Shown here one piece after another: positions 5,516 to 27,962 of a stretch of DNA of 64,000 nucleotides; the first letter of the stretch is position 1, and each line of letters begins with the position of its first letter. A program made the position numbers and the translations under genes. The notes beneath the pieces were generated by a model. It saw nothing but the letters and a program-made list of their open reading frames with translations, did no database searches and was not told where the DNA came from. This stretch comes from an uncultured Verrucomicrobiota bacterium (GTDB lineage: Bacteria; Auribacterota; JABMQX01), in assembly GCA_964482435.1 (NCBI GenBank), contig CAYZXL010000017.1:10932-74931 (forward strand), written 5' to 3'.

Positions 5516-5590
5516 TTCTGTTCCTCCCATGCGCTGCAAGTGCACCTGCATTGACAACTCCACCCCAACATTCAAGCGAACAGGTCGCCT

Positions 5591-8500: not shown

Positions 8501-8668
8501 AATCCCTTGCTGGATGGTCTTGAATGCCGTCGCCCATGACTTCCCGTCGTGGGACCCCAGCGCCGAACAGTCCACGTACCATTCAGCGGATGGCGCATCG
8601 GCGCAGACCGACCAGAACAACAAAGGCAGTAATTCGATGATAAGCGCTCTCTCGACAGCCCCGATCAT
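5591..8668 (-). CDS. Secreted modular beta-helix/TSP3-repeat protein (paralog B, 2 modules), with a C-terminal TSP3-like array and a conserved ~75-aa C-terminal domain
   Basis: 1025-aa ORF. N-terminus is hydrophobic, then WYVDCSALGSHDGKSWATAFKTIQQGIDAAVSGDTVVVAQGTYRENV. A second WYVDRSRPASGDGTSWEKAFRTIQEAIDLA module follows. Rung repeats NN.I..NSA..GGGL.C.GTI. Cap CIIWGN...SPCIDAGD...EPEPNGGR.DMGAYGNT. TSP3-like DTDGDQMPDAWE/DSDDDDLSDGAE. C-terminus SLFRIIEI..RWTVVPSRTYQCYVSSDL..RYYRVSVRK. Confidence 0.8.
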   Translation of the reverse strand: MIGAVERALIIELLPLLFWSVCADAPSAEWYVDCSALGSHDGKSWATAFKTIQQGIDAAVSGDTVVVAQGTYRENVAFKGKNIVLRSTDSSNSAIVSKTIIDGQGASSVVTFAGTEKESCVLSGFTIRNGRAIRGAGICGGTWDYQARVTIRNNVIVGNYAEYEGGGLFLCNGIIQNNVIKENSSGQNGGGLYDCDGTIQNNVISGNATRARLMAEASGGGLDSCQGTIRNNIITNNSSVVDGGGLHYCDGIVEGNVIARNSARSNGGGLGWCRGTVRNNVVYENSAPRGGGLASCFGKVVNNTIVGNSADIGGGLSDCDISLPGCDIRNCIIWGNTASEGPEFVASRTPSYSCIENWTGGGTGNISLFPHFVDPGGGDYHLRSWSPCIDAGDRASDFSKEPEPNGGRIDMGAYGNTPEATSKSPDTDGDSLPDDWEMHFFGDLAQVAEGDADSDGISNADEYLAGTRPIRVSWYVDRSRPASGDGTSWEKAFRTIQEAIDLAYYPDTVLVARGIYFENIHFKGKNIVLRSTEPFDSGIVANTIIDGDAAGPVVTFEGTEGENCVLSGFTIRNGRAMLGGGICGRTSGDGNHATIRSNVIVGNSATSEGGGLFFCDGLVERNTIKANSAEQHGGELAFCSGTVRSNIISGNLSQSQGGGLYWCGGIIQNNAIIANSADEGGGMHGCNGTIENNTILANVADGPGAALYDCSGTVHNCIIWGNKGNNLLFGGVTVSYCCIERWTGDGEGNIPYFPYFVDAANDDYHLKNWSPCIDAGDPSSDFSQEPEPNGGRVDIGMYGNTSEATSASEDSDEDLLPDDWELVIFGSLAHGGTEDPDGDRLPNRAEYLFSTNPENQDTDGDQMPDAWEVDNALDPLTDNAAEDADMDGLTNLQEYLCLTNPNNSDSDDDDLSDGAEVNTHHSDPLKPDTDNDGKNDGQEVAAGTDPLDPQSLFRIIEIVCTPFGTALRWTVVPSRTYQCYVSSDLKLWFPVGGSVTPGPFISTHSVFDWESVQLESRYYRVSVRK

Positions 8669-8733
8669 CTCCGTGATCCTCCAGTTTGCTTGCGGAATCT
8701 ATGGCAGCTTCGACGTAAAGAGCTGCTCTTTGC

Positions 8734-11700: not shown

Positions 11701-13287
11701 CTCGGGAGAAGTCCCGTAATAGGCCCAGACGCCGTAGGAGTTCTCCGTGAAGGTGTTCTCCTTGATCACGGGAGAGCACTCGAGGCCGCTGCACTGGATG
11801 GCTCTGTCGTTGCCGCGAAAAAGGTTGGAAACAATAAGAGGGGAACAGCGGTCTTCGCAGACCACTCCGCATCTACCCCCGGCGACGGTGAACCCCGTTA
11901 GGACGCTGTCCGGGCCTTCGCCGCTATCGAACGTGACGGTGCTCAGGGACCCTTCCGCATCGATAATCGTTGACGCGACAATCCCCGGATCCTGCGGGTC
12001 CTTGGAGCGCAGAGTAATTGCCTTTCCCCTGAAGTTTATACACTCGCGGTAATGGCCGGGAGCAACAATGACGACGTCCTTGTCCCACGCCGCGTCAATC
12101 CCTTCCTGGATGTGTCTGAACGCTGTCTCCCAGGAGAGGCCGTCCGGCTCTTTGGTCGCTGCGCAGTCAACGTAGATGAACGAAGGTGTTGTGGGGTTGG
12201 AGCCTCTTCGGAGCTCTTCAATGTTCGTTCGAGAGTCGCCGTCCGGGTTACCGTCCGCAGCTTGAGACAGGTCGTGGAACCATCGCATTTCCCAGTCGTC
12301 CGGCAAGCCGTCCGCATCTACGTCGAGCGAAGCAGGCACCGCATTAGGGGTGTTGCCATAAGCACCCATGTCTATTCGCCCACCGTTAGGCTCAGGCTCA
12401 CGCGAGAAATCAGACGCCGGGTCCCCGGCGTCAACGCACGGCGACCAGCTTTGAAGACGGTAATCGTTCTTATCGGGCGCGACGAAATGAGGCCAAGCCC
12501 ATGTATTCCCGGCCAATGGATCGCCCCCGCGAAGACACGAGTAAACGGCCGAGCAGGAGTACAAATCGCTGCCATTGCCCACGAATATGCAGTTGCTGAT
12601 CGTCGCCGAACACATGTAATCGCAAAAAATGGCAAATCCCACGTTATCAACGATTGTGTTGTTCACAATCTTCAGCGACGACTGGTTGTAGTAGATGCCG
12701 CCCATGTTATTGCTGGAGGAGTTCCGGGCAATGACGTTGTTGGCAACAACAGCTTGCGAGTTGTGCGTGTAGATACCACCCCCTATCCACGCCTCGTTGG
12801 ACACGATGACGTTGTTTATGATCGTGGGCGACGAATTATCGCAGTAGATGCCGCCTCCCCAGTCGGACTTCCCATTGGTTATGGTGAAACCCCTGAGGAC
12901 CGCGCTGGGTCCCTCTCCGGAGGAAAACGTTACGACTGGCCCCAGTTCCTGTCCGTCTATGACTGTCGCTGCGACAACAGCGAAATCGTCAGGGTCTTCC
13001 GACCGAACAGTGATTTCCTTTCCCCTGAAGCTAATGTTCTCCTCATAGACCCCCGCCCGGACAATAACCGTGTCCCCGCCACTGGCGGAATCAATCGCTT
13101 GCTGGATGGTCTTGAAGGCCATCTCCCGCGTCGTTCCATCGCCCGATTCCGGAACCGAGGCGTCAACATACCACTCGGCCGCTATCAAGGCGCGTGGAAG
13201 GAAACCGAGAGAAAGAGCGGATGCTGCTAAAAGAAAGGCTTTGGCAATCATTGTCCCCTCTGCTTTTCCGACCACCCCCGAAATCAT
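8734..13287 (-). CDS. Secreted modular beta-helix/TSP3-repeat protein (paralog C, 3 modules), with a long TSP3-like array and the conserved C-terminal domain
   Basis: 1517-aa ORF. Signal-like N-terminus (MIAKAFLLAASALSLGFLPRALIAAEWYVD). Three DUF1565-like starts (WYVDASV, FIYVDCAAT, YYVNGTF). Beta-helix rungs. About 10 TSP3-like repeats (DTDGDGLSDGEE, DTDADGLNDGME, DADGDGLTNFQE). C-terminus SLFWIMEI..RWTAAYGKTYQCYFSTDL..RFYKVEVVR. Gaps of 65-75 bp to the neighbouring paralogs suggest co-transcription. Confidence 0.8.
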   Translation of the reverse strand: MISGVVGKAEGTMIAKAFLLAASALSLGFLPRALIAAEWYVDASVPESGDGTTREMAFKTIQQAIDSASGGDTVIVRAGVYEENISFRGKEITVRSEDPDDFAVVAATVIDGQELGPVVTFSSGEGPSAVLRGFTITNGKSDWGGGIYCDNSSPTIINNVIVSNEAWIGGGIYTHNSQAVVANNVIARNSSSNNMGGIYYNQSSLKIVNNTIVDNVGFAIFCDYMCSATISNCIFVGNGSDLYSCSAVYSCLRGGDPLAGNTWAWPHFVAPDKNDYRLQSWSPCVDAGDPASDFSREPEPNGGRIDMGAYGNTPNAVPASLDVDADGLPDDWEMRWFHDLSQAADGNPDGDSRTNIEELRRGSNPTTPSFIYVDCAATKEPDGLSWETAFRHIQEGIDAAWDKDVVIVAPGHYRECINFRGKAITLRSKDPQDPGIVASTIIDAEGSLSTVTFDSGEGPDSVLTGFTVAGGRCGVVCEDRCSPLIVSNLFRGNDRAIQCSGLECSPVIKENTFTENSYGVWAYYGTSPEIADNLITANSTGIWSNTESNISGNTITANRELGILCFGPCGATIVGNVVSNNRGGGITGGTDALTIAHNVITRNSGFGGVRMAVPSCTVADCVITDNSGNDAGAILYEGSGLLQITNCVIAGNSSAGGGGAICLKEQASIVVTNCTIADNPTGGIWCHPQAGIFIVNTVLWGNSPWQVSAPGVAPQIAYCDVQGGWPGDGNIDAAPLFDEGFHLRPGSPCIDAGTATNAPGADFEGEVRPYGTQVDIGADEYVDTDFDSLPDWWERKYFGSVSVSGPQDDPDGDGLTTLQEYQHGTNPALDADADGDGWSDAYEIFHATNVFHPDNPELTYYVNGTFGDDRYDGLAAFPEAIHGPKKTFQAAIDAAITGWDYTVLVAPGTYSGPGNRGIDFGGKEITVKSAEGAGNTVIDCERLGRGFHFHGGETPASVLDGFTVRSGSADYGGGICCKAKSSPTIINCAITGNNADYGGGISCDEQSNPGVINCILLSNSAKDGAGVQCLNQSSPRITNCMIAANQAQQRGGGIFCSGQSNATVTNCTVVGNMATSSGGGIFCSESSPALTNCILWGDTPDEVRAEQAELLLTCCDVQGGYLGEGNIAHDPLFVNPSRGDYHLRSGSPCIDAGTNDVPDLPRVDLDGEYRPFGSRLDIGADEHVDADVDGLPDFWEITHFAMLWMGPEDDPDADGLPNADELLFSADPNNPDTDGDGLSDGEEVNTYHSDPMETDSDGDGLTDGEEAITYGTNPCSVDTDGDQMPDAWEVEHKLDPLRNDGGEDPDNDGLPNAGEFLHLADPQNSDTDADGLNDGMEVDTYGTSPTSADTDGDKMPDGWEVANGLNAPVNDARGDADGDGLTNFQEYQRATDPKNEDTDADGLSDGKEVYAHGTDPLKPDTDGDGKSDGEEVFARTDPRDASSLFWIMEIISMPQGTVIRWTAAYGKTYQCYFSTDLANWQPIGGAITLLSFDSSLSLFDWETPGLGSRFYKVEVVR

Positions 13288-13729: not shown

Positions 13730-15757
13730 GAAGGTTTCAGTTCGGACAAGCAGAGTGCAAAAGAGCGTAAGGCTAAGGGGGATACCCCCCCGGCTGCAGG
13801 CACTTCCATCGCACTTGAATCATCGTCGGTTTTGACCCCGTTGTGCGGACTGCCCGAAGTGGGTGCCCGCAGCACCTTGCTGTGCAAGCGAAGCGTCTGC
13901 GCCGGGTCTGCTCGGGGGACCGGCCGGTATCGGCTCAGTCGCATCAGTCGTCTCCAAAAACTGTAGAGAAGGGGAGGCGGAAGGGGTCTGAGAGAGAAGG
14001 GTTGTCGAAAGTCTTCGGTGCAAGTGTTGAGTGGATTCCGCGCTTTTTGGGCTAAGCACCGAGCAATTCACGCTGCAACAGGGAAGGCCTCGAGAAAAGG
14101 TTCGTCGCAACTCGCTGGCCAGTAACTGATTTCAGGTTTTCACGTTGGCAGGCTTCGGCTTTGACCTGCTAAGGCGCGCCGGTTGCTCCTCCAGAAACAG
14201 CATTAATGGTGTGCGGAGTACGGAGCACCCATGTTCTGCAAGTTGACCAAAGGAACATGAATTTCATCGCATGATTGTCCAAACATGCGGATGGGAGTCC
14301 GATAACACCGCGGGCGTACACTTAAGCAAGAAGTTGGATACCCACGCCTGCTCGCCACATCACGTTGTCCTTTGGACCAACCGAACAGCAGGCAGGTTAC
14401 GGAACGAGAGCATATTCTCCGGACGAAGAGCCAGATTTCTGCGGGAGCGGTAAGCAGGCGCGGCATCTTCTGAACGTCGGTTGTGTTCATAAGCAGAGGC
14501 TGCTTTCCAATAAGGGATGTAACCGAGGGGGCGAAGCTGTGTATGGAACCAAGCGCATCGCTCTCGCTTGTAGCCGCCGATGTTGTTCAGACTCGGTGTT
14601 TGTGAATCGTGGAAGGCGGCCGCGGTTGACGTACGCAGGAAGAGGGCTTGTGTGCAAGGCTATCATACAGTCAGCGCCGTCTTAGTCAAAGAGGAAAGAC
14701 CCTGCCCGTCGGTGGCGCAAGGCCGCCCGAGGGCGGCTTCCCGCCTCTCTGGCGCCGTACTTCGCACACAAGCCCGCCGGCGGGCGGGGTCGCGTGAGAG
14801 TCGTGCTGAGCGGGCAAGCACCCCTGAGGTTACGTGCCGCTGATGTTCAGAACCCATTCTCGAGATTACCGATGTTCGGGCGGACAGCCACCACACTTGA
14901 TTACCGGAAGCGGCCAACTGCGTAGGCTCAAGAGTGTCTGGGCGGATTCCTGCGCTGCGGAAGAAGCAAAATCAGGTCGTATTATGGAGGCTGGTCAAAA
15001 TCCTTTCGCAGGGTCGCCCTCGAAATCCAAAGGAGCGAAGAGTCACGACAGTGGCGCGGAGACTCACGAAAGGGGGAAATGTTAGGCCATTTTCGGACCC
15101 AGTATGCTGGCGTGGGCAATCAAAGGCCCCGGCCCTTTGCCGGATTCCCCCCGCGCCTGTGCATACTCGACGGCAAAGCTCAGCAGGCGGGCGCCTTCAT
15201 CAGTCGTGGAGAACTGACTGCGGAAAACGTTCAGGACCCCTTCGCAGGATCGCCCTACGGAAGGCGCCCCCTCAACATGAAAAGGGATCATCGCTTGAAT
15301 CACGAGACAATAGTGGTGGCGTTGAGACGCGAGTTCTGCCGCGGAGAAACGCGGTTCGGCATGACCGCAAAGAGGGCAGCTCTATCGAGAAGCAGAGGCC
15401 CCTCCCCGCTGCCGGACTACGCCTCCCGACGGGGGACCCCGCCTCGGCCGCCGCAATAAGCCGAATCAAGGGCAAAGGGGCGTTGCAGCATGCAATTGGA
15501 CGGTTTGCTCCCCAGCACTGGCGTGAGTTGTAGCTCCGATTCTTCGACGCGGTAGCAACTTAACCTTCTGGGACCAGTTTTCACCGCCAAATCTCCGAGA
15601 GATGACGTCACAGGCTCGCTCCTATGTCCGGACCACCCAGCGCCGACAGGATATTGTTACTGCCCACTTTCAGGAACAGCACGTGGCTTATGCCGCAGCA
15701 TAGCATTGTTAACTATAATCCGCCGGACGTAATAACTTCATTTGCTGCTGGAAGGCG

Positions 15758-17341
15758 TTGAATGTTCGACGCGCATGGAACAGGAATCGGAATGAGAAAC
15801 GAAGAAGCACAGGTCTCCGCAAGACCGTGAGCGCAAGCTCGGATATAAGATTACAGAGCGCATTCGGGGAAGGCAGGAGATCGGGGGATGGTCTGGGCCA
15901 GCGCGCTGTGCGTGCGGGATTCTGGGTTTTTGGCATCCGCATCACGAGCCGCCTGTTAGGGTCGGTTCGCATGATCGTGCTCGCCCGCCTGTTGGCGCCG
16001 GAAGACCTCGGTTTGATGGGCATTGCGCTTCTGGCGGCATCCGCTTTGGAGACATTTTCACAGACCGGCTTCGATGCAGCTCTGATTCAGCAAAGGGAAA
16101 GGACTTATTCGTATCTGGATACGAGCTGGACGGCACAGGTCATTCGGGGCGTCTTGCTTTTCGGTATTCTTCTTACTTGTGCGCCGTTCGTCTCCGCATT
16201 CTTCAACGCGCCGGAGGCCGCGGCCATCGTTCGCGCCATTGCGGTCGCCGAATTACTCGAAGGATTCACAAATATAGGAATCATCCATTTCAAGAAGGAA
16301 CTGGAGTTCAACAAACAGTTCGTCTTCGAATCCAGCGCGACACTGGCGGATTTGGTCGTGACTGTTTCGCTGGCTTTCATTTTGAGAAACGTTTGGGCAT
16401 TGGTCTTTGGGTTGCTTGCTGGAAAAGCCGCCCATTGTATTGCATCGTATGTGATTCACCCATATCGTCCACACCCCGCGTTTGATCGGCGGCAACTGAG
16501 GGAGCTCCTTGGCTTTGGGAAGTGGGTTTTCGGCTCGAGTGTTCTGGTTTTTCTTCTCACTCAGGGAGATGATGCCCTCGTAGGAAAATTGCTGGGGGCG
16601 AGCACGCTGGCGTTTTATCAGGTGGCTTATCGGATTTCGAACTTGCCGGCAACCGAGATCACACATGTCATTTTTCAGGTGGCGTTCCCGGCTTACTCGA
16701 AACTGCAAGACAATATACCCAAACTGAGGAGCGCCTTTCTGGCGGCCTTGCAGATTACGGCGCTGCTATCCATTCCATTGGCAGGACTCACCTTTGTATT
16801 GGCCCTTCCTCTGACGACAATCCTTCTGGGAGAAAAATGGCTTCCCATCGTCGAAGCAATGCAGGTGCTATCGCTCTTCGGTGTGCTGAGGTCCATAGGA
16901 GCCTCACTGGGCGCCATCGCGCTGGCGACCGGGCAGCCCCAGATTGAAACAAAAATCTCTGTAGTCCAATTATCCCTCTTGGCGGCCATCATCTATCCGT
17001 TAACCAGAAGATGGGGAATCCTTGGGACCTCCTGGGCCACAATCGTTCCGATGATTGTCAGTGTTGTGTCACTTGTGTTTGCAACGAAACGCATTCTTCA
17101 TTTTCGGTATCAGGACTTGCTTTTGCGGCTCTTCATTCCCCTGAGCGCCGTCGTTGCGATGGCTTTCGTCATCCTTGTTTTCCAGAAACTCCTGCTGCCG
17201 TCAATGACATTTCTTTCTCTTTTGTTCCTTCTGGTACTGGGCGGCTCCGTCTACGCAGTTTTCCTACTCTTACTGAGCAGGCTCTTCGGATGCAACATGC
17301 ATAGAATACCACCGCTCGTGCAGAGAACGTGGAAACAATGA
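15758..17341 (+). CDS. wzx: Wzx-like oligosaccharide flippase (MOP/Polysacc_synt family). The true start is probably GTG 15908 or ATG 15971
   Basis: Multi-TM protein. N-terminus FWVFGIRITSRLLGSVRMIVLARLLAPEDLGLMGIALLAASALETFSQTGFDAALIQ is typical of Wzx. It opens a co-directional gene series with overlapping stops and starts. Confidence 0.8.
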   Translation: MNVRRAWNRNRNEKRRSTGLRKTVSASSDIRLQSAFGEGRRSGDGLGQRAVRAGFWVFGIRITSRLLGSVRMIVLARLLAPEDLGLMGIALLAASALETFSQTGFDAALIQQRERTYSYLDTSWTAQVIRGVLLFGILLTCAPFVSAFFNAPEAAAIVRAIAVAELLEGFTNIGIIHFKKELEFNKQFVFESSATLADLVVTVSLAFILRNVWALVFGLLAGKAAHCIASYVIHPYRPHPAFDRRQLRELLGFGKWVFGSSVLVFLLTQGDDALVGKLLGASTLAFYQVAYRISNLPATEITHVIFQVAFPAYSKLQDNIPKLRSAFLAALQITALLSIPLAGLTFVLALPLTTILLGEKWLPIVEAMQVLSLFGVLRSIGASLGAIALATGQPQIETKISVVQLSLLAAIIYPLTRRWGILGTSWATIVPMIVSVVSLVFATKRILHFRYQDLLLRLFIPLSAVVAMAFVILVFQKLLLPSMTFLSLLFLLVLGGSVYAVFLLLLSRLFGCNMHRIPPLVQRTWKQ

Positions 17342-18075
17342 TCCGACGAGTTGCCAAGGCGGCGCTTCGCATTCTTGATAGCCGACTGAAAACGAACTTG
17401 GAGTCTCACGCGGTAGCCTTCGTGGCTGCATGGTATCGCTCGCCAGTCCTGAATTTCCTTCGCCGAAACTTCGAGTTTGCCCGTGTTCGTTGGAAGTACT
17501 TAGTCGGAGTGTGCTCCAGCAACAACATCAAACTGCATTTGGGGTGTGGTGGGGTACATTTTGATGGTTACGTGAACATTGATTGGAGAAAAACGATTGC
17601 AACGGACTTGGTGTGCGATATTAGAAAGCTACCGTATCCGGACAAGTCGGTTGAGACAATCGAAACCTACCATGTGATTGAGCACTTGCCGAGGTGCGAT
17701 GTCGCCAGGGCCTTGAGAGAGTGGTATAGGGTATTGAAACCGAATGGGAAACTGATTATTGAGTGCCCCGATTTCGATTATAACGTTCGTGCCTACTTGA
17801 AGGGAGGGGACTCGACGATGCAGCTGTATTATGTCTATGGAAGGCATCGCTTCCCGGGGGATGTTCATTACTGGGGCTATAATTTTCGACGACTCGAGAA
17901 ACTGCTCAAAGAATGTCAATACACCGACATCAGAAAGCAAAATGCACAGGATAATCACTCCGAGGAAGGAGGGTGTCTGCGGGCGGAGTGTCGAAGGCCG
18001 GCGCGGGAACCCGCTTGCCTGTATGCGCAAGACGCCAGCCGCAATGGGTTCGCGTCTTCCGAGAGAGACTTATGA
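17329..18075 (+). CDS. Class I SAM-dependent methyltransferase
   Basis: KLHLGCGGVHFDGYVNIDW...VIEHLP...WYRVLKPNGKLIIECPDF (Methyltransf_11/23-like). The GTG start overlaps the wzx stop. Confidence 0.75.
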   Translation: METMIRRVAKAALRILDSRLKTNLESHAVAFVAAWYRSPVLNFLRRNFEFARVRWKYLVGVCSSNNIKLHLGCGGVHFDGYVNIDWRKTIATDLVCDIRKLPYPDKSVETIETYHVIEHLPRCDVARALREWYRVLKPNGKLIIECPDFDYNVRAYLKGGDSTMQLYYVYGRHRFPGDVHYWGYNFRRLEKLLKECQYTDIRKQNAQDNHSEEGGCLRAECRRPAREPACLYAQDASRNGFASSERDL

Positions 18076-18090
18076 CTCGACGGCACCGGT

Positions 18091-18993
18091 TTGGTTTTGG
18101 CATCTGTTCGTGCTGGCCTCGCCAGTTCACGTCGGGACCTCGGGAACGAACGCCAGCGGGAGTCAGGCGATCCGGCCTTTAGGAGGAGGAAAACGTTCCG
18201 CATTCTCAATTATCTTTACACTCGAGTCTTCCCGGCAAAAGTCCGTTGGCTGCCTCGCTATTACGAGGTCCTTAAGACATTCGCAGGAAACGGCCGAAAG
18301 AAAATCCTGGAGATAGGGTGTGGCCGTGGGCATGTCGCGTGCGAGTTAGCGAAAAACCGGGCGAAAGTTATTGGCATAGACCATTGTGAGTCTGAGATTC
18401 GCTCTGCCGTCGCCGCAGCGCGAGCGACATCGAGCCCGGCCACATTTTGCGTGGCAGACATTTCGAATTTGCCGTTCAGGGATCGCCTTTTCGATGTTGT
18501 GGTTGCGCTGGACTGCCTCGAATATCTTCGGGACATGAAGGCGACATTTGCCGAGGTGTGCAGGGTTCTTAAGCCAGGCGCCGGGCTGTTGATATTCACC
18601 ATACCGCATTTGTCCACATGCAGCGCGCGTCTGTTTTGGGTTCAGAGGTTCCTTCGCAAGTCGGTTCCGCGCTGGCTACATTCCAAACCCAGGATCAACA
18701 CGAAATCGTGGCTGGAGGCCTCCTCCGAAGAAGAGATACAAAAGGATGGCAGGCTTAAAGACTACGATGTGGATGAACTTCTCAGCTCAGCCGAGAACTA
18801 CTTCCGACTGGAGGGGTACCGATACGCTCTGCGCCTTTTCTCCGCTTTAACCACCGATATCACTTATGGAATTCGTGGGTTTTCCGCCATCCAGCCCTTT
18901 CTTTTCTTTCTTTCTGTTAGGCTGGATCATTACCTATTTGCACCTCACAGACCGGGCTATCTTCTGGTTGTCGAGATGGTGGCGCGAGAATGA
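18091..18993 (+). CDS. Class I SAM-dependent methyltransferase
   Basis: KILEIGCGRGHVACELA...VIGIDHCESEI...VVALDCLEYL...CRVLKPGAGLLIF. Confidence 0.7.
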   Translation: MVLASVRAGLASSRRDLGNERQRESGDPAFRRRKTFRILNYLYTRVFPAKVRWLPRYYEVLKTFAGNGRKKILEIGCGRGHVACELAKNRAKVIGIDHCESEIRSAVAAARATSSPATFCVADISNLPFRDRLFDVVVALDCLEYLRDMKATFAEVCRVLKPGAGLLIFTIPHLSTCSARLFWVQRFLRKSVPRWLHSKPRINTKSWLEASSEEEIQKDGRLKDYDVDELLSSAENYFRLEGYRYALRLFSALTTDITYGIRGFSAIQPFLFFLSVRLDHYLFAPHRPGYLLVVEMVARE

Positions 18994-20132
18994 AAAACAA
19001 GCGCGTTTTTTGGGTCAGCTGGTTTGCGTACCGCGCTCGAGTCGCACACTTGTTTCAGTGGATTCAACTACACCTTCTGAAAAGGCGACAGGCTGTTATA
19101 CTGGGCTATCACCGAATCGGCGATGCTCACGATTTTCTACCCCCAGGATTGGTCTGCGGGCGACATGACTTCGAGCAGCACCTCAAGCTACTTCGGAGAC
19201 GATTCGTTCTCCTCTCCCTGGAGGAATTGGTGACTCGCCTTCAGCGACGCGAACCGATCCCGTTTCGCTCTGTTGTTGTCACTTTTGACGATGGCTTTGC
19301 GGATGTTTTCACCAACGCATTTCCGCTACTGAAGAAACACTCTGTGCCTGCGACTCTCTTTTTGACCACGGATATGTTGGATCAGTGCCACTTGCTGCCG
19401 CTGCATGTGTTTTACTATCTGGTGCATGCGGTCGGATTTCATCGAATTGTGCAACTACTTCGTGAGACAGGGTACGTGGAGCCCTCACCTTATCGCGTAA
19501 ACGGCTCTACGATGGAAGAACAAAGAAAAACGATCGAGCGAATACTTGGATTCCAAATATCCTCACCGGAAGGGTGCCGGCTTCTGGACCATCTATCAGA
19601 ACGCTTTGGTGTCGAAGTGGATGGTGAGCTTCCTGAGCGCTTGTACCTCTCGTGGGAAACTGTCCAGGCCATGGAAAACGCAGGGCTAACGTTTTGCCCC
19701 CATTCACGCACGCACCCGAGGCTGGCTCTTCTCCCCGAGGAGGAACAGGTGGATCAAATTGGTGGATCTTACTCCGCCATCAAACAGAGATTGAGGAGCT
19801 CCTCGCCCATCTTTGCTTATCCCTTTGGAGATGAAGATTCATTCGATGATAGTACTCGAAGGGCCTTGCGAAAAGATGGCCTGGTGGCTGCCTGCTCTAA
19901 CATCCCAGGTAAGGTCACCAGCGACAGCGACCTGTATGCCCTTTGTCGGATTCCTATCTCTTCCGAGGCATTATCGCTTCCGGAGATGTTCTGTGAGATG
20001 GTTGGGTTCCTCGACTGGCTAAGAAATGTCAACAAATGGCTTTCGAACAAGTTGAGACGCTCATCGCCCCATCACCGGGACCTCAAGGACCCAGGCACGC
20101 CAAAATCGGCCCACCCTCAACCAGGACGATAA
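18990..20132 (+). CDS. Polysaccharide deacetylase (CE4/NodB family)
   Basis: NodB motif VVVTFDDGFADVFTNAFPLLKKHSVPATLFLTT. The start overlaps the upstream stop (atga). Confidence 0.7.
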   Translation: MKNKRVFWVSWFAYRARVAHLFQWIQLHLLKRRQAVILGYHRIGDAHDFLPPGLVCGRHDFEQHLKLLRRRFVLLSLEELVTRLQRREPIPFRSVVVTFDDGFADVFTNAFPLLKKHSVPATLFLTTDMLDQCHLLPLHVFYYLVHAVGFHRIVQLLRETGYVEPSPYRVNGSTMEEQRKTIERILGFQISSPEGCRLLDHLSERFGVEVDGELPERLYLSWETVQAMENAGLTFCPHSRTHPRLALLPEEEQVDQIGGSYSAIKQRLRSSSPIFAYPFGDEDSFDDSTRRALRKDGLVAACSNIPGKVTSDSDLYALCRIPISSEALSLPEMFCEMVGFLDWLRNVNKWLSNKLRRSSPHHRDLKDPGTPKSAHPQPGR

Positions 20133-20385
20133 TCTTCAATCGCATTCTTGGCTGTGGGGACTCAAGCGGGTCGCCAGTGTTGTCTATGGACTGTGCGTTC
20201 CCAAATGCTCGTCCACGGAGATGCCAACTCAACAGGACTTCGGAGAGAACAGCCACGCGCGGACGGGCAGTCAGCCATCACCTCTTTCCTTTGTCCGGGG
20301 TACAAAGGCTGTCATTGCCGCGAGTGGTGATGCCAGGAATTAGAAAAAACTTGGGAAAGAATCGGTTTCACGGAAAGGAAGAATC

Positions 20386-21519
20386 ATGCCGAAGAGAATT
20401 CTTATCACTGGAGGAGCTGGCTTCATCGGGAGCCACACAGCCGACCGGTTGATCGAGCGAGGCTACGAGGTTGTTATTTATGACAATCTGGATCCGCAGG
20501 TTCATGATTCCATTCCGGATTACCTGCATCCGGACGCGGAGTTCATCGAGGGCGATGTAAGGGACCGAAATCGCTTGCATCGTGTCCTGAGGGGGGTGGA
20601 TGCGGTATGTCATCTGGCAGCGGCCGTCGGCATCGGTCAATCCATGTACGACATAGAGAAATATGTGGATGTAAACATTGGAGGTACGGCGGTACTCTTG
20701 GACTTGCTGGTGAAAGAACCCGATGTCCGGGTGGAGAAAGTTGTCATCGCAAGCAGCATGAGCATTTACGGGGAAGGGGAGTACGACTGTCCTGAGTGCG
20801 GAGTCGCCAGGCACCCCCGTGTTCGCTGCCGAGAGGAGATAAGGAAAGGCGGCTGGGAACTCCACTGTGTTGTGTGCGCCCATAGACTGCAGCCCAGACC
20901 GACACGAGAAACCAGCTCGCTGAACGCGAACAGCATCTACGCCATCACCAAAAGAGTGCAGGAAGAGATGACGACGATGGTCGGCCGCGCCTACGGCATC
21001 CCGGTTGTTGGGCTTCGCTATTTCAATACCTACGGGCAGAGGCAGAGCCTCAGGAACCCCTACACGGGCGTCTGCGCCATTTTCAGCGGCCGAATCAAAA
21101 CTGGTAATCCACCGATTCTGTATGAGGATGGATTACAGACCCGCGATTTCATTCACGTGCGAGATGTCGCAAGGGCGAACCAACTGGCCATCGAAAGCGC
21201 GGCGGCGGACGGGCAGGTGCTTAACGTCGGGACCGGCAGAGTCACAACTGTCAAGGAAATCGCTCAGGCACTCATTCACCTGTATGGGAAAGAACGGGAG
21301 CTCACACCACGAATCGCTAATCAGTTTCGTGAGGGGGACATTCGGCACTGCTGTGCGGACATTTCGGAGATTCAACGAGTCCTGGGGTTTTCTCCAGAGG
21401 TTCCCCTCAGTGAGGGGCTGCAGGACCTTGTGAACTGGGGACGAACTCAGCAGGCCGCCGACTGCTTTGACCAGGCGCAAGCCGAACTCGACCGATTCGG
21501 TCTCGTCCACTCGCAATGA
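20386..21519 (+). CDS. NAD-dependent sugar epimerase/dehydratase (SDR) with a ~40-aa Cys4 zinc-ribbon-like insertion
   Basis: ILITGGAGFIGSHTADRLIERGYEVVIYDNL (Rossmann fold). YAITK catalytic motif. YGIPVVGLRYFNTYGQRQ. Insertion DCPECGVARHPRVRCREEIRKGGWELHCVVCAHRL lies between the YGEGEY and Y..TK segments. Confidence 0.8.
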   Translation: MPKRILITGGAGFIGSHTADRLIERGYEVVIYDNLDPQVHDSIPDYLHPDAEFIEGDVRDRNRLHRVLRGVDAVCHLAAAVGIGQSMYDIEKYVDVNIGGTAVLLDLLVKEPDVRVEKVVIASSMSIYGEGEYDCPECGVARHPRVRCREEIRKGGWELHCVVCAHRLQPRPTRETSSLNANSIYAITKRVQEEMTTMVGRAYGIPVVGLRYFNTYGQRQSLRNPYTGVCAIFSGRIKTGNPPILYEDGLQTRDFIHVRDVARANQLAIESAAADGQVLNVGTGRVTTVKEIAQALIHLYGKERELTPRIANQFREGDIRHCCADISEIQRVLGFSPEVPLSEGLQDLVNWGRTQQAADCFDQAQAELDRFGLVHSQ

Positions 21520-22649
21520 AAACAATTTCCATTCTCAGTTACGACCTTTCAGACAACTGTCTGGTGAGAACCTACCCCATCGCGAAAGTCCTTCAGCGCC
21601 GTTACAGGGTGGAGGTCGTTGGCCCGGTTTTTGGTGATAGCATTTTCGTCCCGTACAGAGATGAGTTTGTGTACAAACCTCTGTATCTGCCGCGGGACGG
21701 CTCGCGACTTCAGAGGTTGGCGCGTGGCTTCACCGGGCTTGCATGGTTGCTGGATAGGGTGGCGGGTGATGTCATTTATGCCTTTAAGCCCCGGGTTACC
21801 AGCCTTGGAATCGGCTTGTTGGCGAGATGCAAAAAGAAGGTTCCGCTTCTTCTCGACATTGAGGACTGGGAGGCCGAATCGTTCTATTATTCCCCTTTCC
21901 GGTCAAAAGTTGTGGCACTGGCGGGACTCCATGACCCGAACAATATCTTCTACAATTACTTTATCGAACACCTAACGAGCCTGGCCGACGGAATCACGGT
22001 CGTTTCGACGTACCTGCAGCGCCGGTTCGGAGGGGTGCGATTGGTACATGGAGCGGACTGCTACACTTTCGATCCCGCGAAATATCAGGATGGACGCCTT
22101 CCCAAAGAGAGAGACGGGAGCTTTGTAATCCTTTTCGCGGGAACGCCAAGGCCCCACAAAGGATTGGAAGAACTCACACAGGCTCTGAGGATCATTTCAT
22201 CTCCCCGTCTCTGTTTGGTGGTTGTTGGCCACCAGACAGAGTACTTGCGGCGCTTATCACAGAAGTACAGCCGATACATGAGGTGTACTGGGCCGCTGCC
22301 CCATTGCGAAATGCCCCGCTTGTTGAGCCGCGCGAACCTCGTTGTACTGCCGCAGCGAGATGTGCCGGTCACACAGGCTCAGGTCCCCGGCAAGATATTC
22401 GAAGCCATGGCCATGGCGAAACCAATCATCGCGACGGAGGTTTCTGATATCCCTGAGATCCTGGATAACTGCGGCTGGCTCGTCGAACCTGAAAGCCCGG
22501 AGGCGTTGGCAGAGACCATCAGGTACGTGATGGAGCATCCGGAGGAAGCAGCGGCGATGGGGGAGCGGGCACGACAACGATGCATCGAGAAATACAGTTG
22601 GGATGCCATGGAGCGGATCCTGTTCCCTCTCTTCGAGAGGTTCCTGTGA
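21516..22649 (+). CDS. Glycosyltransferase family 4
   Basis: ILFAGTPRPHKGLEEL...LVVVGHQ...KIFEAMAMAKPIIATEVSDIPEIL (GT4 C-domain motifs). The start overlaps the upstream stop. Confidence 0.8.
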   Translation: MKTISILSYDLSDNCLVRTYPIAKVLQRRYRVEVVGPVFGDSIFVPYRDEFVYKPLYLPRDGSRLQRLARGFTGLAWLLDRVAGDVIYAFKPRVTSLGIGLLARCKKKVPLLLDIEDWEAESFYYSPFRSKVVALAGLHDPNNIFYNYFIEHLTSLADGITVVSTYLQRRFGGVRLVHGADCYTFDPAKYQDGRLPKERDGSFVILFAGTPRPHKGLEELTQALRIISSPRLCLVVVGHQTEYLRRLSQKYSRYMRCTGPLPHCEMPRLLSRANLVVLPQRDVPVTQAQVPGKIFEAMAMAKPIIATEVSDIPEILDNCGWLVEPESPEALAETIRYVMEHPEEAAAMGERARQRCIEKYSWDAMERILFPLFERFL

Positions 22650-23040
22650 TTCGCCGAACACAGTCAGACAAGGGGTACCCGCTGCGCCCAGCGTCGTACC
22701 CCCTTCGCAAAACCGGAGTTCCCCCTCGGGGCAAGCCTCTGACGCTCTGTGAATATACTCCCTGTTGTTCCTGGCGGTAGCGAGAAGGACAGATTTCATT
22801 CCCACGCACTCTCCGCACTTCTCGGGTCTATTCTGAGCTTTTTGGCAAACGGAGTCGCAACGAAAGCAACGCAGGGAGCAGGAAAATACGCGGCCATGCT
22901 CCCGAAAGGTGGGTGCCGCGTGTCCACGGTCGGGTTAACTGAGGTTCAGATAAAGCCGAGCCGTCACGATGTATCGGAAGTTGAGAAGGTTGCTGTCGAG
23001 GAATTCTCTGGCTTGACAGAAGAAAAAACGGAGGCAGATC

Positions 23041-23730
23041 GTGGCGCTTTGCATGGTTGATGAATGCAGCTATTCCTCCGGAAGATACAGAAGACGCTGG
23101 CGTGTTGTGATAGTGACTACGGTTCCTTTATCTTTCATCTTCTTCAGCGGTCTGTTCCAGTTTCTGCGGGAGCGCGGATATGAGGTACACGGGGTATGCT
23201 CTCCGGGCAAAATGATAAAAGAAGTGGCGTCCTCCGAGGGGATTGTGATGCATCCGGTGTCCATGTCACGTTCCATTACCCCGCTGAGTGACCTTTTGAC
23301 GCTGGGGCGGCTGGTGAAGCTGTTCATCTATCTGCGACCGGACATCGTTCACTCGCATACGCCGAAGGGTGGGCTGCTTGGCACACTCAGCGCCTGTATC
23401 GCGGGGGTTCCAGTCCGGTGCTATACGCTGCATGGGTTGCCCATGATGACTGGAGGGGCGGTGAAGCGGCAACTCCTCAAGTGGAGTGAAACCCTGGCGT
23501 GTGCCTGCGCGCACCGCGTGTTTTGCGTGAGCGAGTCGATCAGAAAGGTGAGCATCCGACTCGGGATCTGCCCGAAGGACAAAATTCAGGTTTTCTGCAA
23601 TGGGAGCAGCAATGGTGTGGACGGACGCACGTTTCAGCGCACTGGGCTCGTACAGAAGTGGGCGCGCGAATTGCGCGCCAACATAAACATCCCCAAGGAC
23701 GCGCTCGTCATGGGCTTTGTCGGGCGACTA
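23041..23730 (+). pseudogene. GT4 glycosyltransferase, N-terminal part, interrupted by an IS630-family insertion after ...GFVGR
   Basis: GT4 N-domain (PDIVHSHTPKGGLLG...) ends at GFVGR followed by the IS-encoded LLTIV*. Joining 23730 to 24829 restores GFVGRLVRDKGIWEL, the canonical GT4 GRLVREKG motif, in frame. Confidence 0.8.
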
Positions 23731-23764
23731 TTGACGATTGTGTAGCGAACGGAAGGGGCCTCTG

Positions 23765-24268
23765 TCATGGTGGGAGCCCCGCCAGGTCAAAGAAGGAACG
23801 GAGAAGCCCGGACTGGCCCCGGGTGCTGCTCATGGAGGACCGGACCAGCAAGTGCAGCTCTTCCAGGTCGTCGGGAGCAAGGTTCGGCAGGTCGGCGTAC
23901 TTGGTATGGTTCCATACCTGCTCCGTAGGGTTGAGCTGGGGGGCGTAAGCGGGCAACTCCTCCAGATGGATTTTGTCACCGTGACGCTGCAGGTAGTTCC
24001 CAACAACGGCTGCCCTGTGGACATTCCCTCGGTCGAGGATCACGACGATCTTGCGCCGCAGACTCCTTCGGAGCGACCGCAGGAATCTCACGACGTCCTC
24101 TCCGCGGATGTTGCGATTCTGAATCCGCCAGTACAGGCCAAGACGACGCCTGCGAGGCGCCAGGCTAATGGCGCTGATGACCGACAAGCGGTCGTGGCGC
24201 TCCCACTGACGCTGGATAGGTGTTTTACCTTTCGGGGCCCAAGTTCGCCGCACTGTGGGCTGCAACAT
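23765..24268 (-). CDS. IS630-family transposase OrfB (DDE catalytic part), in the +1 frame relative to OrfA
   Basis: VVILDRGNVHR...LEELPAYAPQLNPTEQVWNHTKY (DDE with the PQLNPiE motif). The frame is open upstream to ...SIVFLDESGFML immediately after the A7 tract. Confidence 0.85.
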   Translation of the reverse strand: MLQPTVRRTWAPKGKTPIQRQWERHDRLSVISAISLAPRRRRLGLYWRIQNRNIRGEDVVRFLRSLRRSLRRKIVVILDRGNVHRAAVVGNYLQRHGDKIHLEELPAYAPQLNPTEQVWNHTKYADLPNLAPDDLEELHLLVRSSMSSTRGQSGLLRSFFDLAGLPP

Positions 24269-24296
24269 GAAGCCGCTCTCGTCGAGAAAGACAATG

Positions 24297-24782
24297 CTAC
24301 GTCCTTCTCCTCGCGCGTTTTTTTATATGGGGCCACCCCTCTTTGCGCCAGCGTTCAATCTCCTTCTCATTCCTTTCCCTCGCGCGCCGCTCGGGCTTTT
24401 GACAGCTCCACCCACAGGAATGCAGCAACCTCCACACGTGCGCCGGGTGGTACCGCACGCCAAAATGCCGCTCGATCACCTCGGCCACTCGGGGTAGGGT
24501 CCACAGATCGTTGTGATACCCGTGGGCTTTTGGACCTTGCTTCAGCAGCTCAAGCAACTGCTCCTTCTGCTCGGCCGACAGACGCGGGCGCGGCCCCGGA
24601 TGCGGTTTCGCCGCCAACCCCTCCACCCCGCTTTTCTCTACCACCTCCTTCCAGCGGGTCACTGAAGACGGCGAACACCCAATCAGCCGGGCCACTTCTC
24701 CACCGCGAAGACCTTTCTGGAGAAGCGATACCGCCCATCGTCGCCGAGCCTCCAACACCTCGGCACTCCCTTTGGGTCTCAT
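24297..24782 (-). CDS. IS630-family transposase OrfA (N-terminal HTH DNA-binding part)
   Basis: ...VARLIGCSPSSVTRWKEVVEKSG...GPRPRLSAEQKEQLLELL... is typical of the IS630/Tc1 N-terminal HTH. Ends KKRARRRT* within an A7 tract. Confidence 0.85.
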   Translation of the reverse strand: MRPKGSAEVLEARRRWAVSLLQKGLRGGEVARLIGCSPSSVTRWKEVVEKSGVEGLAAKPHPGPRPRLSAEQKEQLLELLKQGPKAHGYHNDLWTLPRVAEVIERHFGVRYHPAHVWRLLHSCGWSCQKPERRARERNEKEIERWRKEGWPHIKKRARRRT

Positions 24783-24830
24783 ACAAGCGACAATTATACA
24801 AGGATTTCATTGGCTGTACAAGCGTCAATA

Positions 24831-25341
24831 GTTCGAGACAAAGGCATTTGGGAACTGGTTTCGTCGTGGAGAATCCTCCGAAGGGAATTCCAGAACCTTC
24901 ATCTGTTGGTTATCGGTTCAGCCGAAGCGCAGGACCCGCTCTCTCCAGAGATCCTCGACCTCCTGAGGAAGGATGAGAGAATCCATCGTGTGGAGTGGGT
25001 GCCGAAGGAGAAGATGCCGGGATACTACGCGGCCATGAACATCGTCGTTCTTCCGTCCTACAGGGAGGGATTCCCAAACGTGCTCCTTGAGGCAGCGGCG
25101 ATGGCTTTGCCGGTTGCCGCAACCCGAATTCCGGGGTGCTTGGACGCCGTAGTTGACGGCTTGACCGGGATTCTTGTCCCCCCGAGAGATGCTGCCGGGC
25201 TGGCGCATGCAGTCCACCGGCTGCTTGAAGACCCCGGACTACGCTGGCGGATGGGAGAAGCCGGGCGGCAACGTGCCTTGCAGGATTTCCGTCCGGAGCC
25301 GATATGGCTGGCGTTGTGCCAGGAGTACTGGAGTCTCCTGC
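24831..25341 (+). pseudogene. GT4 glycosyltransferase, C-terminal part (continuation of 23041-23730 across the IS). It reads in frame into the downstream PglC-like gene
   Basis: VRDKGIWELV...LHLLVIGSAE...EGFPNVLLEAAAMALPVAATRIPG...QEYWSLL. No stop codon before the PglC-like domain. The listed TTG start at 24810 lies inside the IS. Confidence 0.75.
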
Positions 25342-25472
25342 GCCGCAAGTGTTCCCGCGCTTCCCTTCGCAGACTACTGGATCGCGAGTATCAGGTTGCT
25401 CGCTCGTGGGACGTGCCGTGGACTCGGTTTTCTTCTTTGGGCAAAGGGCTGCAAGCAAGGCCTGGGCGGGAG

Positions 25473-26171
25473 ATGGAGTTGCTGAAAAGGGCTGTGGATT
25501 TCTCCGTCGCTCTTGTCGGGATAGCGGGGGTGCTGCCCTTGTTTCTTCTCGTCGCGCTATTAATCCGACTCACCATGGGGGGGCCCATATTCTATGTGAG
25601 CGAGCGCCCGGGCATTGAGGGGCGGGTCTTTCCGCTATACAAGTTTCGCACGATGCGATACGAATGCAGCCCCCACGGGGAGCTTCCGCCGGATTCTGAA
25701 CGGCTCACGGCGCTCGGGCGGTTCATTCGGCGATGGAGCCTTGATGAGCTTCCGCAGTTGTGGAATGTCCTGAAGGGGGATATGAGCTTCGTAGGCCCGC
25801 GTCCCCTGCTGGTGGAATACCTTGGCATGTACACCACCAGACAGGCCCGCCGGCACGAAGTCCGTCCCGGTATCACCGGCTGGGCACAGGTGAACGGACG
25901 CAACGCGCTGACTTGGGAACAGAAGTTCGACCTTGATGTGTGGTATGTAGACCATAGGTCGTTCTTGTTGGACCTTAAGATTCTTCTCAACACACTGCCG
26001 GCGGCTCTCCGAAGAGAATGGATATGGGCGAGAGGTGAGACGAATGAGCCGTTTCTGGGGAGTGCGCCCGACAGAACAAAGAGAGCACAGGGAGGGCGAG
26101 GCCCCATTCCCCTCGGGGAGCGGGCAAGTCTCACCCGAACCGACATGGTTGAGCAGCCATGCAAAAGCTGA
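25473..26171 (+). CDS. PglC/WbaP-C-like phosphoglycosyl transferase (initiating sugar-phosphate transferase, Bac_transf family)
   Basis: LKRAVDFSVALVGIAGVLPLFLLVALLIRL..GPIFYVSERPGIEGRVFPLYKFRTM...DELPQLWNVLKGDMSFVGPRPLL...PGITGWAQVNGRN. ATG at 25473. Confidence 0.75.
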   Translation: MELLKRAVDFSVALVGIAGVLPLFLLVALLIRLTMGGPIFYVSERPGIEGRVFPLYKFRTMRYECSPHGELPPDSERLTALGRFIRRWSLDELPQLWNVLKGDMSFVGPRPLLVEYLGMYTTRQARRHEVRPGITGWAQVNGRNALTWEQKFDLDVWYVDHRSFLLDLKILLNTLPAALRREWIWARGETNEPFLGSAPDRTKRAQGGRGPIPLGERASLTRTDMVEQPCKS

Positions 26172-26806
26172 TGATTTACGGAGCAGGGGGACACGCCAGA
26201 GTCATCGTCGATATGGTTCATAAGTGCCGTAAGTACCATATCGTGGGGCTGATTGACGATAACTCGCACAAGCAAGGGCAAAGGTCACTCGGTGAAGAAG
26301 TGAAAGGAACCTTCGCGGAGCTGTCGCGTCTGCACCTGGGGGTTAACGCATTCGTTATAGGTATCGGCGATAACAAAAAAAGGTTCGGCGTCTGGGAAAG
26401 GCTCAGGGAGCTTGGCGTGGAGTATGTCAGTGTGGTTCACCCTTCCGTGAGCGTAGGCGAGGAGGTGACTATCGGGGAAGGCACGGTTGTGATGGCAGGG
26501 GTTATTATCAACTGTTGCTCGTGTGTCGGCGTTCATTGCATTGTGAACACCGCAAGCTCGATAGACCACGACTGTCGCGTGGGAGATTTCGCGCACATTG
26601 GACCGGGGGCCGTGCTGTGCGGCGGTGTTCAAGTGGGCGATTTCTCGCTGGTGGGAGCCGGCGCAAGGGTCCTTCCAGGAGTTAAGATTGGCCGCGAGGT
26701 GACAATAGGGAGCGGGGCTGTCGTCACTCGGGACGTGCCTGACGGGGAGTGTGTTGTGGGTGTGCCGGCAAAGCCGCTGCGCACGGCCGCTGAGGCGACC
26801 CGGTGA
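26159..26806 (+). CDS. NeuD/PglD-family hexapeptide-repeat sugar N/O-acetyltransferase
   Basis: MQKLMIYGAGGHARVIVDMV...IVGLIDDN is the NeuD/PglD N-terminal domain. The C-terminus is a left-handed beta-helix with hexapeptide repeats (IGEG..V..G..I...C.VG). Confidence 0.75.
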   Translation: MQKLMIYGAGGHARVIVDMVHKCRKYHIVGLIDDNSHKQGQRSLGEEVKGTFAELSRLHLGVNAFVIGIGDNKKRFGVWERLRELGVEYVSVVHPSVSVGEEVTIGEGTVVMAGVIINCCSCVGVHCIVNTASSIDHDCRVGDFAHIGPGAVLCGGVQVGDFSLVGAGARVLPGVKIGREVTIGSGAVVTRDVPDGECVVGVPAKPLRTAAEATR

Positions 26807-27003: not shown

Positions 27004-27477
27004 ATGAGCAGCACGCCGGCGAAGGTCAGGATATTCTGGCCTCGCCTTGGGGAACAGAAAAGGTTCCAGGAAAGCCTGAAGCAAATCTGGGACTCCCGTA
27101 CAATCACGTCCGGTCCATTCGGCGAGCAGCTCGAGCACCAGGCGAAGGAATATCTTGGAGTCAAACATGTTGTTGCTGTCGCGAGCTGCACGTCCGGGTT
27201 GATGCTCTGCATGAAGGCGCTGCGTATGGAGGGGGAAGTGATCTTGCCCAGCTACACGTTTGCCGCCACAGCGCATGCAGCCGTCTGGGCAGGACTGCGG
27301 CCGGTCTTCGTAGATTGCGAACCGAAGACATGGACAATAGACCCCTCGAAAGCTGAAGAGGCGATAACTTCCTCAACCGGCGGGATACTTGCCGTCTCCG
27401 TTTTCGGGGTGCCCCCGCCCTATCATGAATTGGAGCGATTGTCAATCCGAGCAGCATCGAGCACCGAACCCGAATGA
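27004..27477 (+). pseudogene. DegT/DnrJ/EryC1/StrS (PglE-like) sugar aminotransferase, N-terminal half only (157 aa)
   Basis: RBS aggag + ATG at 27004. ...GPFGEQLEHQAKEYLGVKHVVAVASCTSGLMLCMKAL...EVILPSYTFAATAHAAVWAGLRPVFVDCEP..TWTIDPSKAEEAIT... Terminates before the PLP-lysine region. Confidence 0.7.
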
Positions 27478-27962
27478 TGGAAGCCAGCCTCTTGTCTGGC
27501 CTGGCCATCCAAACGACCCGGACCGCCCTCGCTCATTCGATGTCCTATCCCTTGACACTGTCTTTCGGCATTCCCCACGGACTGGCTTGTGGGTTCACGC
27601 TGCCGGCAGTTCTTGAGTTCAACGCGCAGGCCGATGATGGACGCCTCGCTCAGCTCGCCAAGGCCATGGGATTCCACTCCGTCTTGCTTCTCCGGGATGC
27701 TCTCCAGGAACTGCTCGTGGAGACCGGGACGGAGACACTTCTGAAGAGATATGTTTCCTGGATTGACGATTTAGCCAGGCTTGCTCCTCAGATGCTTCAT
27801 CGAGGCCGCGCCGACAACAACCTTCGGCCGGCGAACTTGCACGATGTGAGACAAATTCTTGCCGCCGCGGGCGCGGCGTTACATCTGAATCCCGCGCCGA
27901 GAGAAGTTCAAAATAGCGAGGCGACCGAACTCAGCCTCCCTGGACGCTCTTCTGCCACATAG
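27474..27962 (+). pseudogene. C-terminal fragment of an iron-containing alcohol dehydrogenase/dehydroquinate-synthase-like enzyme, abutting the DegT fragment
   Basis: ...ALAHSMSYPLTLSFGIPHGLACGFTLPAVLEFNA... resembles the Fe-ADH C-terminal His region. There is no N-terminal Rossmann part. Confidence 0.5.

Follow-up and report, generated by a model that had tools for sequence, protein, structure and literature searches.

Does the insertion sequence (IS) lodged in a surface-polysaccharide locus of an uncultured Verrucomicrobiota bacterium (GTDB lineage Bacteria; Auribacterota; JABMQX01) mark a genuine transposition into a glycosyltransferase gene, and what has the event meant for the gene and for the element? 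We addressed this question in a stretch of 64,000 nucleotides, hereafter the window, read from the forward strand of contig CAYZXL010000017.1 (positions 10,932 to 74,931; GenBank assembly GCA_964482435.1). A preliminary description of this DNA, made without database searches, had placed an IS630-family element inside a GT4 glycosyltransferase gene of an exopolysaccharide (EPS) locus and had suggested on/off variation of the polysaccharide. The insertion is real and recent but is an ordinary gene disruption, and a 98%-identical relative carries the gene uninterrupted. Overall, we consider with high confidence that the data are best explained by insertion of an autonomous IS630 element that disrupted a gene for a GT4 fused to a phosphoglycosyl transferase (GT4-PGT), the element probably being active through recoding at a run of seven adenines (A7) in its transposase gene.

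An IS630-family element flanked by a duplicated TA

Direct reading of the sequence between 23400 and 25200 defined an IS of 1,098 bp at window positions 23731–24828 with a TA on either side, in agreement with the preliminary description (Table 1). On the plus strand the element opens with TTGACGATTGTGTAGCG and closes with CGCTTGTACAGCCAA...CGTCAA. Its left end, TTGACGATTGTGTAGCGAACGG, and the reverse complement of its right end, TTGACGCTTGTACAGCCAATGA, form the imperfect terminal inverted repeats (TIRs), TTGACG...CGTCAA, that had been noted before; they match at 16 of the first 22 positions by a hand count on the alignment. The TIR pair was the top inverted repeat of the region in an inverted-repeat search (28 nt including the TA, 79% complementary), and a degenerate pattern for the ends matched twice in the 64 kb, once at each element end, and not at all in 100 shuffles. 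The target site is CTAG, the sole CTAG among the 46 TA dinucleotides of the 2,031-bp host gene; IS630 itself reportedly prefers CTAG. Size, TIRs, TA duplication and transposase type, which are all the criteria testable here, place the element in the IS630 family, whose members span about 1.0–1.4 kb in ISfinder. With about 59% GC in the IS-containing interval and 50–60% in the locus, base composition gave no sign of a foreign origin of that interval.

Proof of the insertion came from an empty site. A homologue found with the rejoined host protein as query (P0121) is 94% identical to it and unbroken over the junction (...MGFVGRLVRDKGIWEL...). P0121 is encoded on a contig (L004, from JGI metagenome 3300035179) that runs colinear with the window: positions 124–5284 of L004 correspond to window 18570–23730 with 98.1% identity, and positions 5283–6685 to window 24829–26231 with 97.3% identity, both without gaps. 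The two alignment blocks share exactly 2 nt, a single TA, and the empty site reads GGGCGAC-TA-GTTCGAG (target sequence, GGGCTTTGTCGGGCGACTAGTTCGAGACAAAGG). The comparison with siblings that the preliminary description had suggested thus shows an uninterrupted gene with a single TA in a sibling population, so that the empty site exists in nature and the insertion is proven. Occupied alleles are found in the window and in three Logan contigs (L001–L003), the empty allele in L004, and the lineages are 97–98% identical.

The preliminary description had also tied its reading of the TIRs and the target duplication to other copies of the element, and in these the assignment holds. A 98.6% identical copy with a different flank (L041, SRR33366731) shows on its contig the left junction only, ...CGCT-TA-TTGACG. 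A complete 1,098-bp copy with 88.6% identity (L053, ENA) reads TA-TTGACC...GACCAA-TA and again occupies CTAG. Multi-copy relatives in Latescibacterota metagenome-assembled genomes (MAGs; 46–59% amino-acid identity) read TA-TTG(A/T)C...TCAA-TA wherever the ends could be located, which was the case at 17 of the 20 loci listed. The groups of L042 and of L045–L052 have TA at both ends, and more distant copies occupy Y-TA-R sites.

A further insertion was found at the edge of the sibling contig. L004 begins with the end of a related IS630 element (L004 1–125; 87% identity over 79 nt; ...GCAAGCATCAA-TA), which abuts the TA equivalent to window 18570–18571, inside a methyltransferase gene whose window counterpart (18091–18993) is intact. 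In this one locus the insertions are thus reciprocal, each lineage carrying an IS where the other has none.

As a separate observation on the surroundings of the other copies, the IS within the L053 interval 1801–6316 lies between an RVT_1 reverse-transcriptase gene (514 aa) and toxin-antitoxin-like genes (NTP_transf_2/HepT-like, HicA), which looks like a mobile or defence island.

The interrupted gene encodes a GT4-PGT fusion

Deletion of 23731–24830 rejoins ...ALVMGFVGR-L-VRDKGIWEL... in frame, as had been read from the sequence beforehand, and yields a protein of 676 aa. Pfam assigned Glyco_transf_4 (PF13439, E=7.5e-19), Glyco_trans_4_4 and Glyco_trans_4_2 to residues 33–188, Glycos_transf_1 (PF00534, E=2.1e-33) to residues 210–378, unbroken across the junction, and Bac_transf (PF02397, E=8.2e-62) to residues 449–623. 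EGFPNVLLE can be read as the E-x7-E motif of the GT4 C-domain. Thus, the GT4 domain proposed for the host gene is present, but the gene is not a plain GT4: it encodes a GT4 glycosyltransferase joined to a Bac_transf phosphoglycosyl transferase, which means that an initiating enzyme is affected as well. Such fusions are common, since most of the 120 listed homologues have PF02397 together with GT4 domains and are typically about 600 aa long. The Bac_transf domain of the interrupted gene is the sole one in the window.

The insertion falls at codon 231, between the two Rossmann halves of the GT4. The annotated 5′ fragment reads on into the IS and stops at 23745. At the other side, a Shine–Dalgarno-like AGGA (24801–24804) followed after 5 nt by TTG (24810) lies inside the IS end (24801–24812) and opens an in-frame ORF of 453 aa, consisting of six IS-encoded residues and then the GT4 C-domain and the PGT; this ORF is called as a gene in L002. 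An outward hybrid promoter driving the downstream gene fragment was rejected as unsupported, the scan having given no plus-strand promoter at the IS end. The promoter-like site listed for the transposase is a consensus match only, 2 sites having been found against 1.0 expected.

The 390-nt gap before the GT4-PGT gene is filled by an ORF of 103 aa (22749–23060), for which the sibling contig has no Pfam hit on record. Compared with L004 it shows 7 nonsynonymous changes and 1 synonymous change; the stretch probably does not encode a protein and may be where the promoter of the interrupted gene lies.

Consistent with the EPS locus proposed earlier, the genes that flank the insertion form a Wzx/Wzy-type surface-polysaccharide cluster. 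Upstream lie genes for a Wzx-type flippase, two methyltransferases, a deacetylase, an epimerase/dehydratase and a glycosyltransferase (GT); downstream are those for a PglD-like acetyltransferase, a Wzy-like polymerase, several GT4s and more methyltransferases, followed further on by a CapD/PglF-like dehydratase and a Wzc-like kinase. Searches for tRNAs and Rfam families gave no matches. Upstream of the cluster, on the minus strand (5591–13287), two large proteins of 1,025 and 1,517 aa with right-handed beta-helix, NosD and bacterial TSP3 repeats are encoded; their genes are also weakly matched by a 34.7-kb metagenome contig (L039).

Table 1 Features of the insertion and of the interrupted gene (window coordinates)
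Feature	Position	Strand	Description
5′ fragment of GT4-PGT gene	23041–23730	+	GT4 N-terminal Rossmann domain, codons 1–230, ends ...GFVGR-L; 98% identical to L004
Left TA of duplicated target	23729–23730		Direct reading; single TA in L004 empty site
IRR, inverted repeat at transposase 3′ end	23731–23758		Begins TTGACGATTGTGTAGCGAACGG; TTGAC start common to related copies
ORFB, DDE_3 catalytic part	23765–24324	−	Frame +1 with respect to ORFA, opening at the A-run
ORFA, 161 aa, HTH DNA-binding part	24297–24782	−	Ends ...WPHIKKRARRRT, then stop; Pfam HTH
A7 run (T7 on + strand), putative recoding (slippage) site	24318–24324	−	ORFA/ORFB overlap, context CAU AUA AAA AAA CGC
Promoter-like site TGTACA-16 nt-TATAAT	24793–24820	−	Inside IRL, beside ORFA start; 10/12 consensus matches
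IRL, inverted repeat at transposase 5′ end	24801–24828		Ends TTGGCTGTACAAGCGTCAA
Right TA of duplicated target	24829–24830		Direct reading; L004 comparison
3′ fragment of GT4-PGT gene	24831–26171	+	GT4 C-terminal domain, linker, Bac_transf phosphoglycosyl-transferase domain

Further lesions in the locus

The insertion may also be viewed as a stage in the decay of the polysaccharide locus, which would be unneeded or counter-selected (e.g., by phage), and hence as a terminal loss rather than a reversible switch, a reading to which we give somewhat less than an even chance. Several observations support it. In the window, a DegT/PglE-type aminotransferase gene (27004–27477, 157 aa) is cut to its first third (profile positions 4–135 of 360) and abuts a 162-aa C-terminal remnant of an Fe-alcohol dehydrogenase (Fe-ADH; 27474–27962); this junction looks like a deletion or recombination scar and would be a second lesion in the locus. 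In L004, beside the insertion in the methyltransferase gene, the GT4-PGT gene has a CAG-to-TAG nonsense change in the conserved DELPQL of Bac_transf (L004 6209–6211, equivalent to window 25755–25757) and a D-to-H change in GDMS of the transferase domain, so that its sequence suggests that the gene may be inactive in that lineage too. In addition, dN/dS of the GT4-PGT gene (0.29–0.61) is somewhat above that of neighbouring genes (0–0.49), but the counts are small, with 17–19 substitutions per segment. Against decay, both lineages retain an otherwise intact cluster, a single metagenome contig is the source of the stop codon in L004, and independent lesions in several genes of one locus are also expected under diversifying selection or phase variation. 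Given the further lesions in the window and in L004, gene decay is as plausible as reversible switching. Erosion or diversification of the locus that is not necessarily reversible, which we hold to be possible at a little below even likelihood, refines the explanation by IS630 insertion and does not replace it.

A split transposase with a conserved A7 run

The transposase combines a helix-turn-helix (HTH) part with a DDE catalytic part in two ORFs on the minus strand, a split at an A7 run that the preliminary description had overlooked. ORFA matches five overlapping Pfam families, all above the Pfam cut-offs (HTH_23, HTH_28, HTH_29, HTH_32 and HTH_33), and ORFB matches DDE_3 (PF13358, E=2.5e-29) across the full profile. 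When joined, the two align end to end with single-ORF transposases of 338–343 aa. D167, D250 and E287 are conserved in the alignment of homologues (FLDESGF, ILDR and NPTEQVW), and the spacing from the second D to the E, counted on the sequence, is 36 residues. The homologues P0340 and P0345 carry the NCBI name 'IS630 family transposase'; the family assignment was made from structural criteria and homologue names.

An exact-protein look-up found neither transposase ORF. Among the homologues found, no full-length single-ORF protein exceeds 60% identity to the transposase, whereas the truncated P0006 reaches 74%. A scan of the genome collection with the fused transposase returned only relatives with at most 59% identity, mostly multi-copy single-ORF elements in Candidatus Latescibacterota MAGs, which indicates that the GTDB representatives do not include the source species, or at least do not include this IS. 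Among genomes, Latescibacterota contain the nearest IS relatives, and a Planctomycetota MAG contains one relative of ORFA. A 26-nt word of the IS occurred in two metagenome contigs only, and in L039 the piece that matches the 5′ end of ORFA is just 123 nt long (83% identity).

ORFA stops 8 codons past the A7 run, and the +1 frame of ORFB opens exactly at the run, with a TAA just before it; A6 or A9 at this position would merge ORFA and ORFB into one ORF. The first ATG, GTG or TTG of ORFB is at 24268, and the codon of the first catalytic Asp (24281–24283) lies upstream of it, after the ORFA stop. The complete DDE enzyme could therefore be made only by entering the +1 frame near the run.

This layout could in principle be that of a dead copy, in which an A6-to-A7 frameshift inactivated a single-ORF transposase and left an insertion that is fixed and immobile unless mobilised in trans. 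Homopolymer runs mutate easily, a relative with 73% nucleotide identity (L040) has A6 at the run position and one ORF continuous through the site, and more distant homologues (at most 60% identity) are single ORFs of 338–343 aa. However, the A7 run and both open ORFs are kept in copies with 98.6% (L041), 88.6% (L038 and L053, two independent assemblies) and 69% identity (L042–L044), and in copies with 67% identity (L045–L052) the run is A9 and ORFB likewise lies in the +1 frame; these split-ORF copies stem from many samples and contexts that are unrelated. Likewise, all 120 best ORFA homologues listed (60–99% identity) are stand-alone proteins of 121–196 aa and not of about 340 aa, and 108 of these 120 end in W-x-x-[IV]-K-K and a tail of 1–12 residues. 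A comparison of the window with L038 gave dN/dS values of 0.19 (ORFA) and 0.12 (ORFB), as against values above 2 in the wrong frames, indicating that both ORFs are under purifying selection. Furthermore, the stretch between the run, where the +1 frame opens, and the first ORFB ATG encodes the conserved ...SIVFLDESGF with the catalytic Asp. We thus consider a dead copy improbable. The split transposase is probably functional, its conserved layout fitting the programmed recoding that has been predicted for other IS630 members.

As for how ORFA and ORFB would be joined, transcriptional slippage (A7 to A6 or A9) appears the likeliest route, at slightly better than even chances. A −2 or +1 ribosomal shift is a good deal less probable, and the absence of any productive recoding at the run is a shade less probable again. 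A classical −1 ribosomal frameshift on A_AAA_AAA was rejected because the −1 frame does not encode transposase, and a sequencing error at the A7 was rejected because related copies show the same run in assemblies that were made independently (JGI, ENA and Logan).

Separately, a GGGG-TGG-CCCC stretch on the minus strand (24325–24340), seen by eye, could fold into a hairpin with a 4-bp GC stem, the end of which lies 4 nt upstream of the A7 run. The stretch is also constrained by its Gly-Trp-Pro codons, and the diverged sequence types are too few for covariation. The candidate brings to mind the Roseiflexus IS630, in which a hairpin located upstream is reported to stimulate slippage.

Junctions in independent assemblies

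An assembly artefact, in which the assembler misplaced a repeated IS into the gene, has a negligible probability: the contigs of three samples do all break inside the IS (L001 ends at window 24285, L002 starts at 24627 and L003 at 24727) and none independently spans the whole element, but the left junction is reproduced in L001 (Logan, ERR4334736; 100% identical to window 15516–24285 by alignment) and the right junction in L002 (ERR4334734) and L003 (ERR4334730), both with the same genes as the window, the two junctions fit through duplication of a TA at a site unbroken in L004, and a chimera would not yield a perfect 2-bp target duplication at an in-frame break. The different break points in the three short-read assemblies suggest that those samples hold several non-identical or repeated IS copies.

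Discussion

Based on these findings, we propose the following course of events. An autonomous IS630-family element inserted by DDE transposition at the TA of a CTAG, duplicating the TA, in a gene for a GT4 fused to a PglC/WbaP-type phosphoglycosyl transferase within a Wzx/Wzy-type cluster. GT4 activity would thereby be abolished and the initiating-transferase domain detached from its normal start. The element probably remains active. Its default product would be ORFA alone, with the transposase made as an ORFA-ORFB fusion by recoding at the conserved A7 run, most likely by transcriptional slippage that loses one A, and with ribosomal frameshifting (−2 or +1) as the alternative. That the polysaccharide of the locus is lost or altered, and the current mobility and reversibility of the element, we infer from sequence.

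Several points weigh against this scenario. The occupied allele and the empty one were found in separate samples, in lineages that have diverged by 2–3% of nucleotides, and represent between-lineage rather than within-strain variation. Translation from the AGGA/TTG at 24810 may permit a C-terminal fragment with the PGT to be made, in which case initiation would not be fully lost. In this copy, the region around the A7 (24286–24626) is outside the Logan contigs, and the run length is that of one assembly together with close relatives. Finally, A7 is shorter than the A8–A9 runs of proposed slippage, and recoding efficiency could be very low.

Reversibility calls for particular care. Exact restoration of the donor would need a rare host-mediated event between the 2-bp repeats. 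Cut-and-paste transposition of the IS630/Tc1 type leaves a broken donor (PMC6400869). Together with the gap between the lineages and the other lesions in the locus, this advises caution about reversible switching.

IS630 of Shigella sonnei and ISY100 of Synechocystis, the latter with a single ORF, are the reference bacterial members of the IS630/Tc1/mariner group (PMC6400869). Like the element described here, they are about 1 kb long, combine HTH with DDE(D), have imperfect TIRs of about 24 bp, duplicate TA and transpose by cut-and-paste (PMC6400869). Unlike the single-ORF ISY100, the present element has two ORFs. Frameshifting is known in the family (PMC5009743). ISDra3, ISDra4 and ISDra6 of Deinococcus radiodurans are IS630 members with A runs, A9 in ISDra3 and A8 in ISDra6 (PMC1088944, PMC11219805), and transcriptional realignment or slippage has been predicted for such runs (Baranov 2005, PMC1088944; PMC11219805). 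For the Roseiflexus IS630, realignment at T5C5 was shown experimentally, as cited in two reviews (PMC5009743, PMC6211511). As in these elements, an IS630 transposase is split here into two ORFs that would be joined at a slippage-prone run. In contrast to them, the run is only A7 (A9 in the 67% relative) and ORFB is in the +1 frame, which corresponds to one A lost or two gained; the likeness is one of layout.

Insertion sequences are known to interrupt surface-polysaccharide genes in other bacteria, for example IS492 in the eps locus of Pseudoalteromonas and IS1301 in meningococcal siaA, as well as ISAba13, which belongs to a different IS family. In the capsule locus of Acinetobacter baumannii, scarless excision of ISAba13 from itrA, where it is flanked by a 9-bp duplication, restores capsule production (PMC9038732). 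Like ISAba13 in itrA, the IS studied here is bordered by identical target repeats and interrupts the gene for the initiating transferase in a surface-polysaccharide locus. Reversion was experimental in that case, whereas here the alleles are known from sequence only, and the gene is a GT4-PGT fusion of an uncultured environmental bacterium. Stationary-phase variants of Xanthomonas oryzae carry IS insertions, and reversions, in EPS and O-antigen genes, and endogenous ISs in polysaccharide genes produce variants that are non-mucoid or lack a capsule, some of them reverting (bioRxiv 10.1101/2023.04.27.538605). Switching was observed within a strain in the Xanthomonas, IS492 and IS1301 cases, whereas the present polymorphism is between lineages. 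The on/off variation suggested in the preliminary description is thus plausible by analogy.

The type of event is textbook, and the recoding principle has already been published for other IS630 members, so that current understanding is unchanged. What is modestly new is an unnamed IS from a large, mostly metagenomic A-run subclade, and reciprocal IS insertions in one locus of sibling populations.

For annotation, two GT4 fragments and two transposase ORFs become one interrupted GT4-PGT gene and one probably functional IS, and annotating them as four genes or as a pseudogene would misread the locus. The same caution extends to a sizeable set of IS630 elements with the conserved A-run split, which automated pipelines will score as frameshifted pseudogenes. 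In biological terms, the locus of this uncultured bacterium provides a clean natural example, with occupied and empty alleles, of how an IS disrupts the step that initiates a surface-polysaccharide pathway. More speculatively, and rather unlikely in our estimate, a large and mostly environmental IS630 subclade may depend on an obligatory loss of one A or gain of two at an A7–A9 run (+1/−2, not the classical −1) and may repeatedly hit the same polysaccharide locus in sibling populations. If this is true, the hits of the subclade in the GT4-PGT gene here and in the methyltransferase gene of L004 would make the locus a hot spot of population-level variation.

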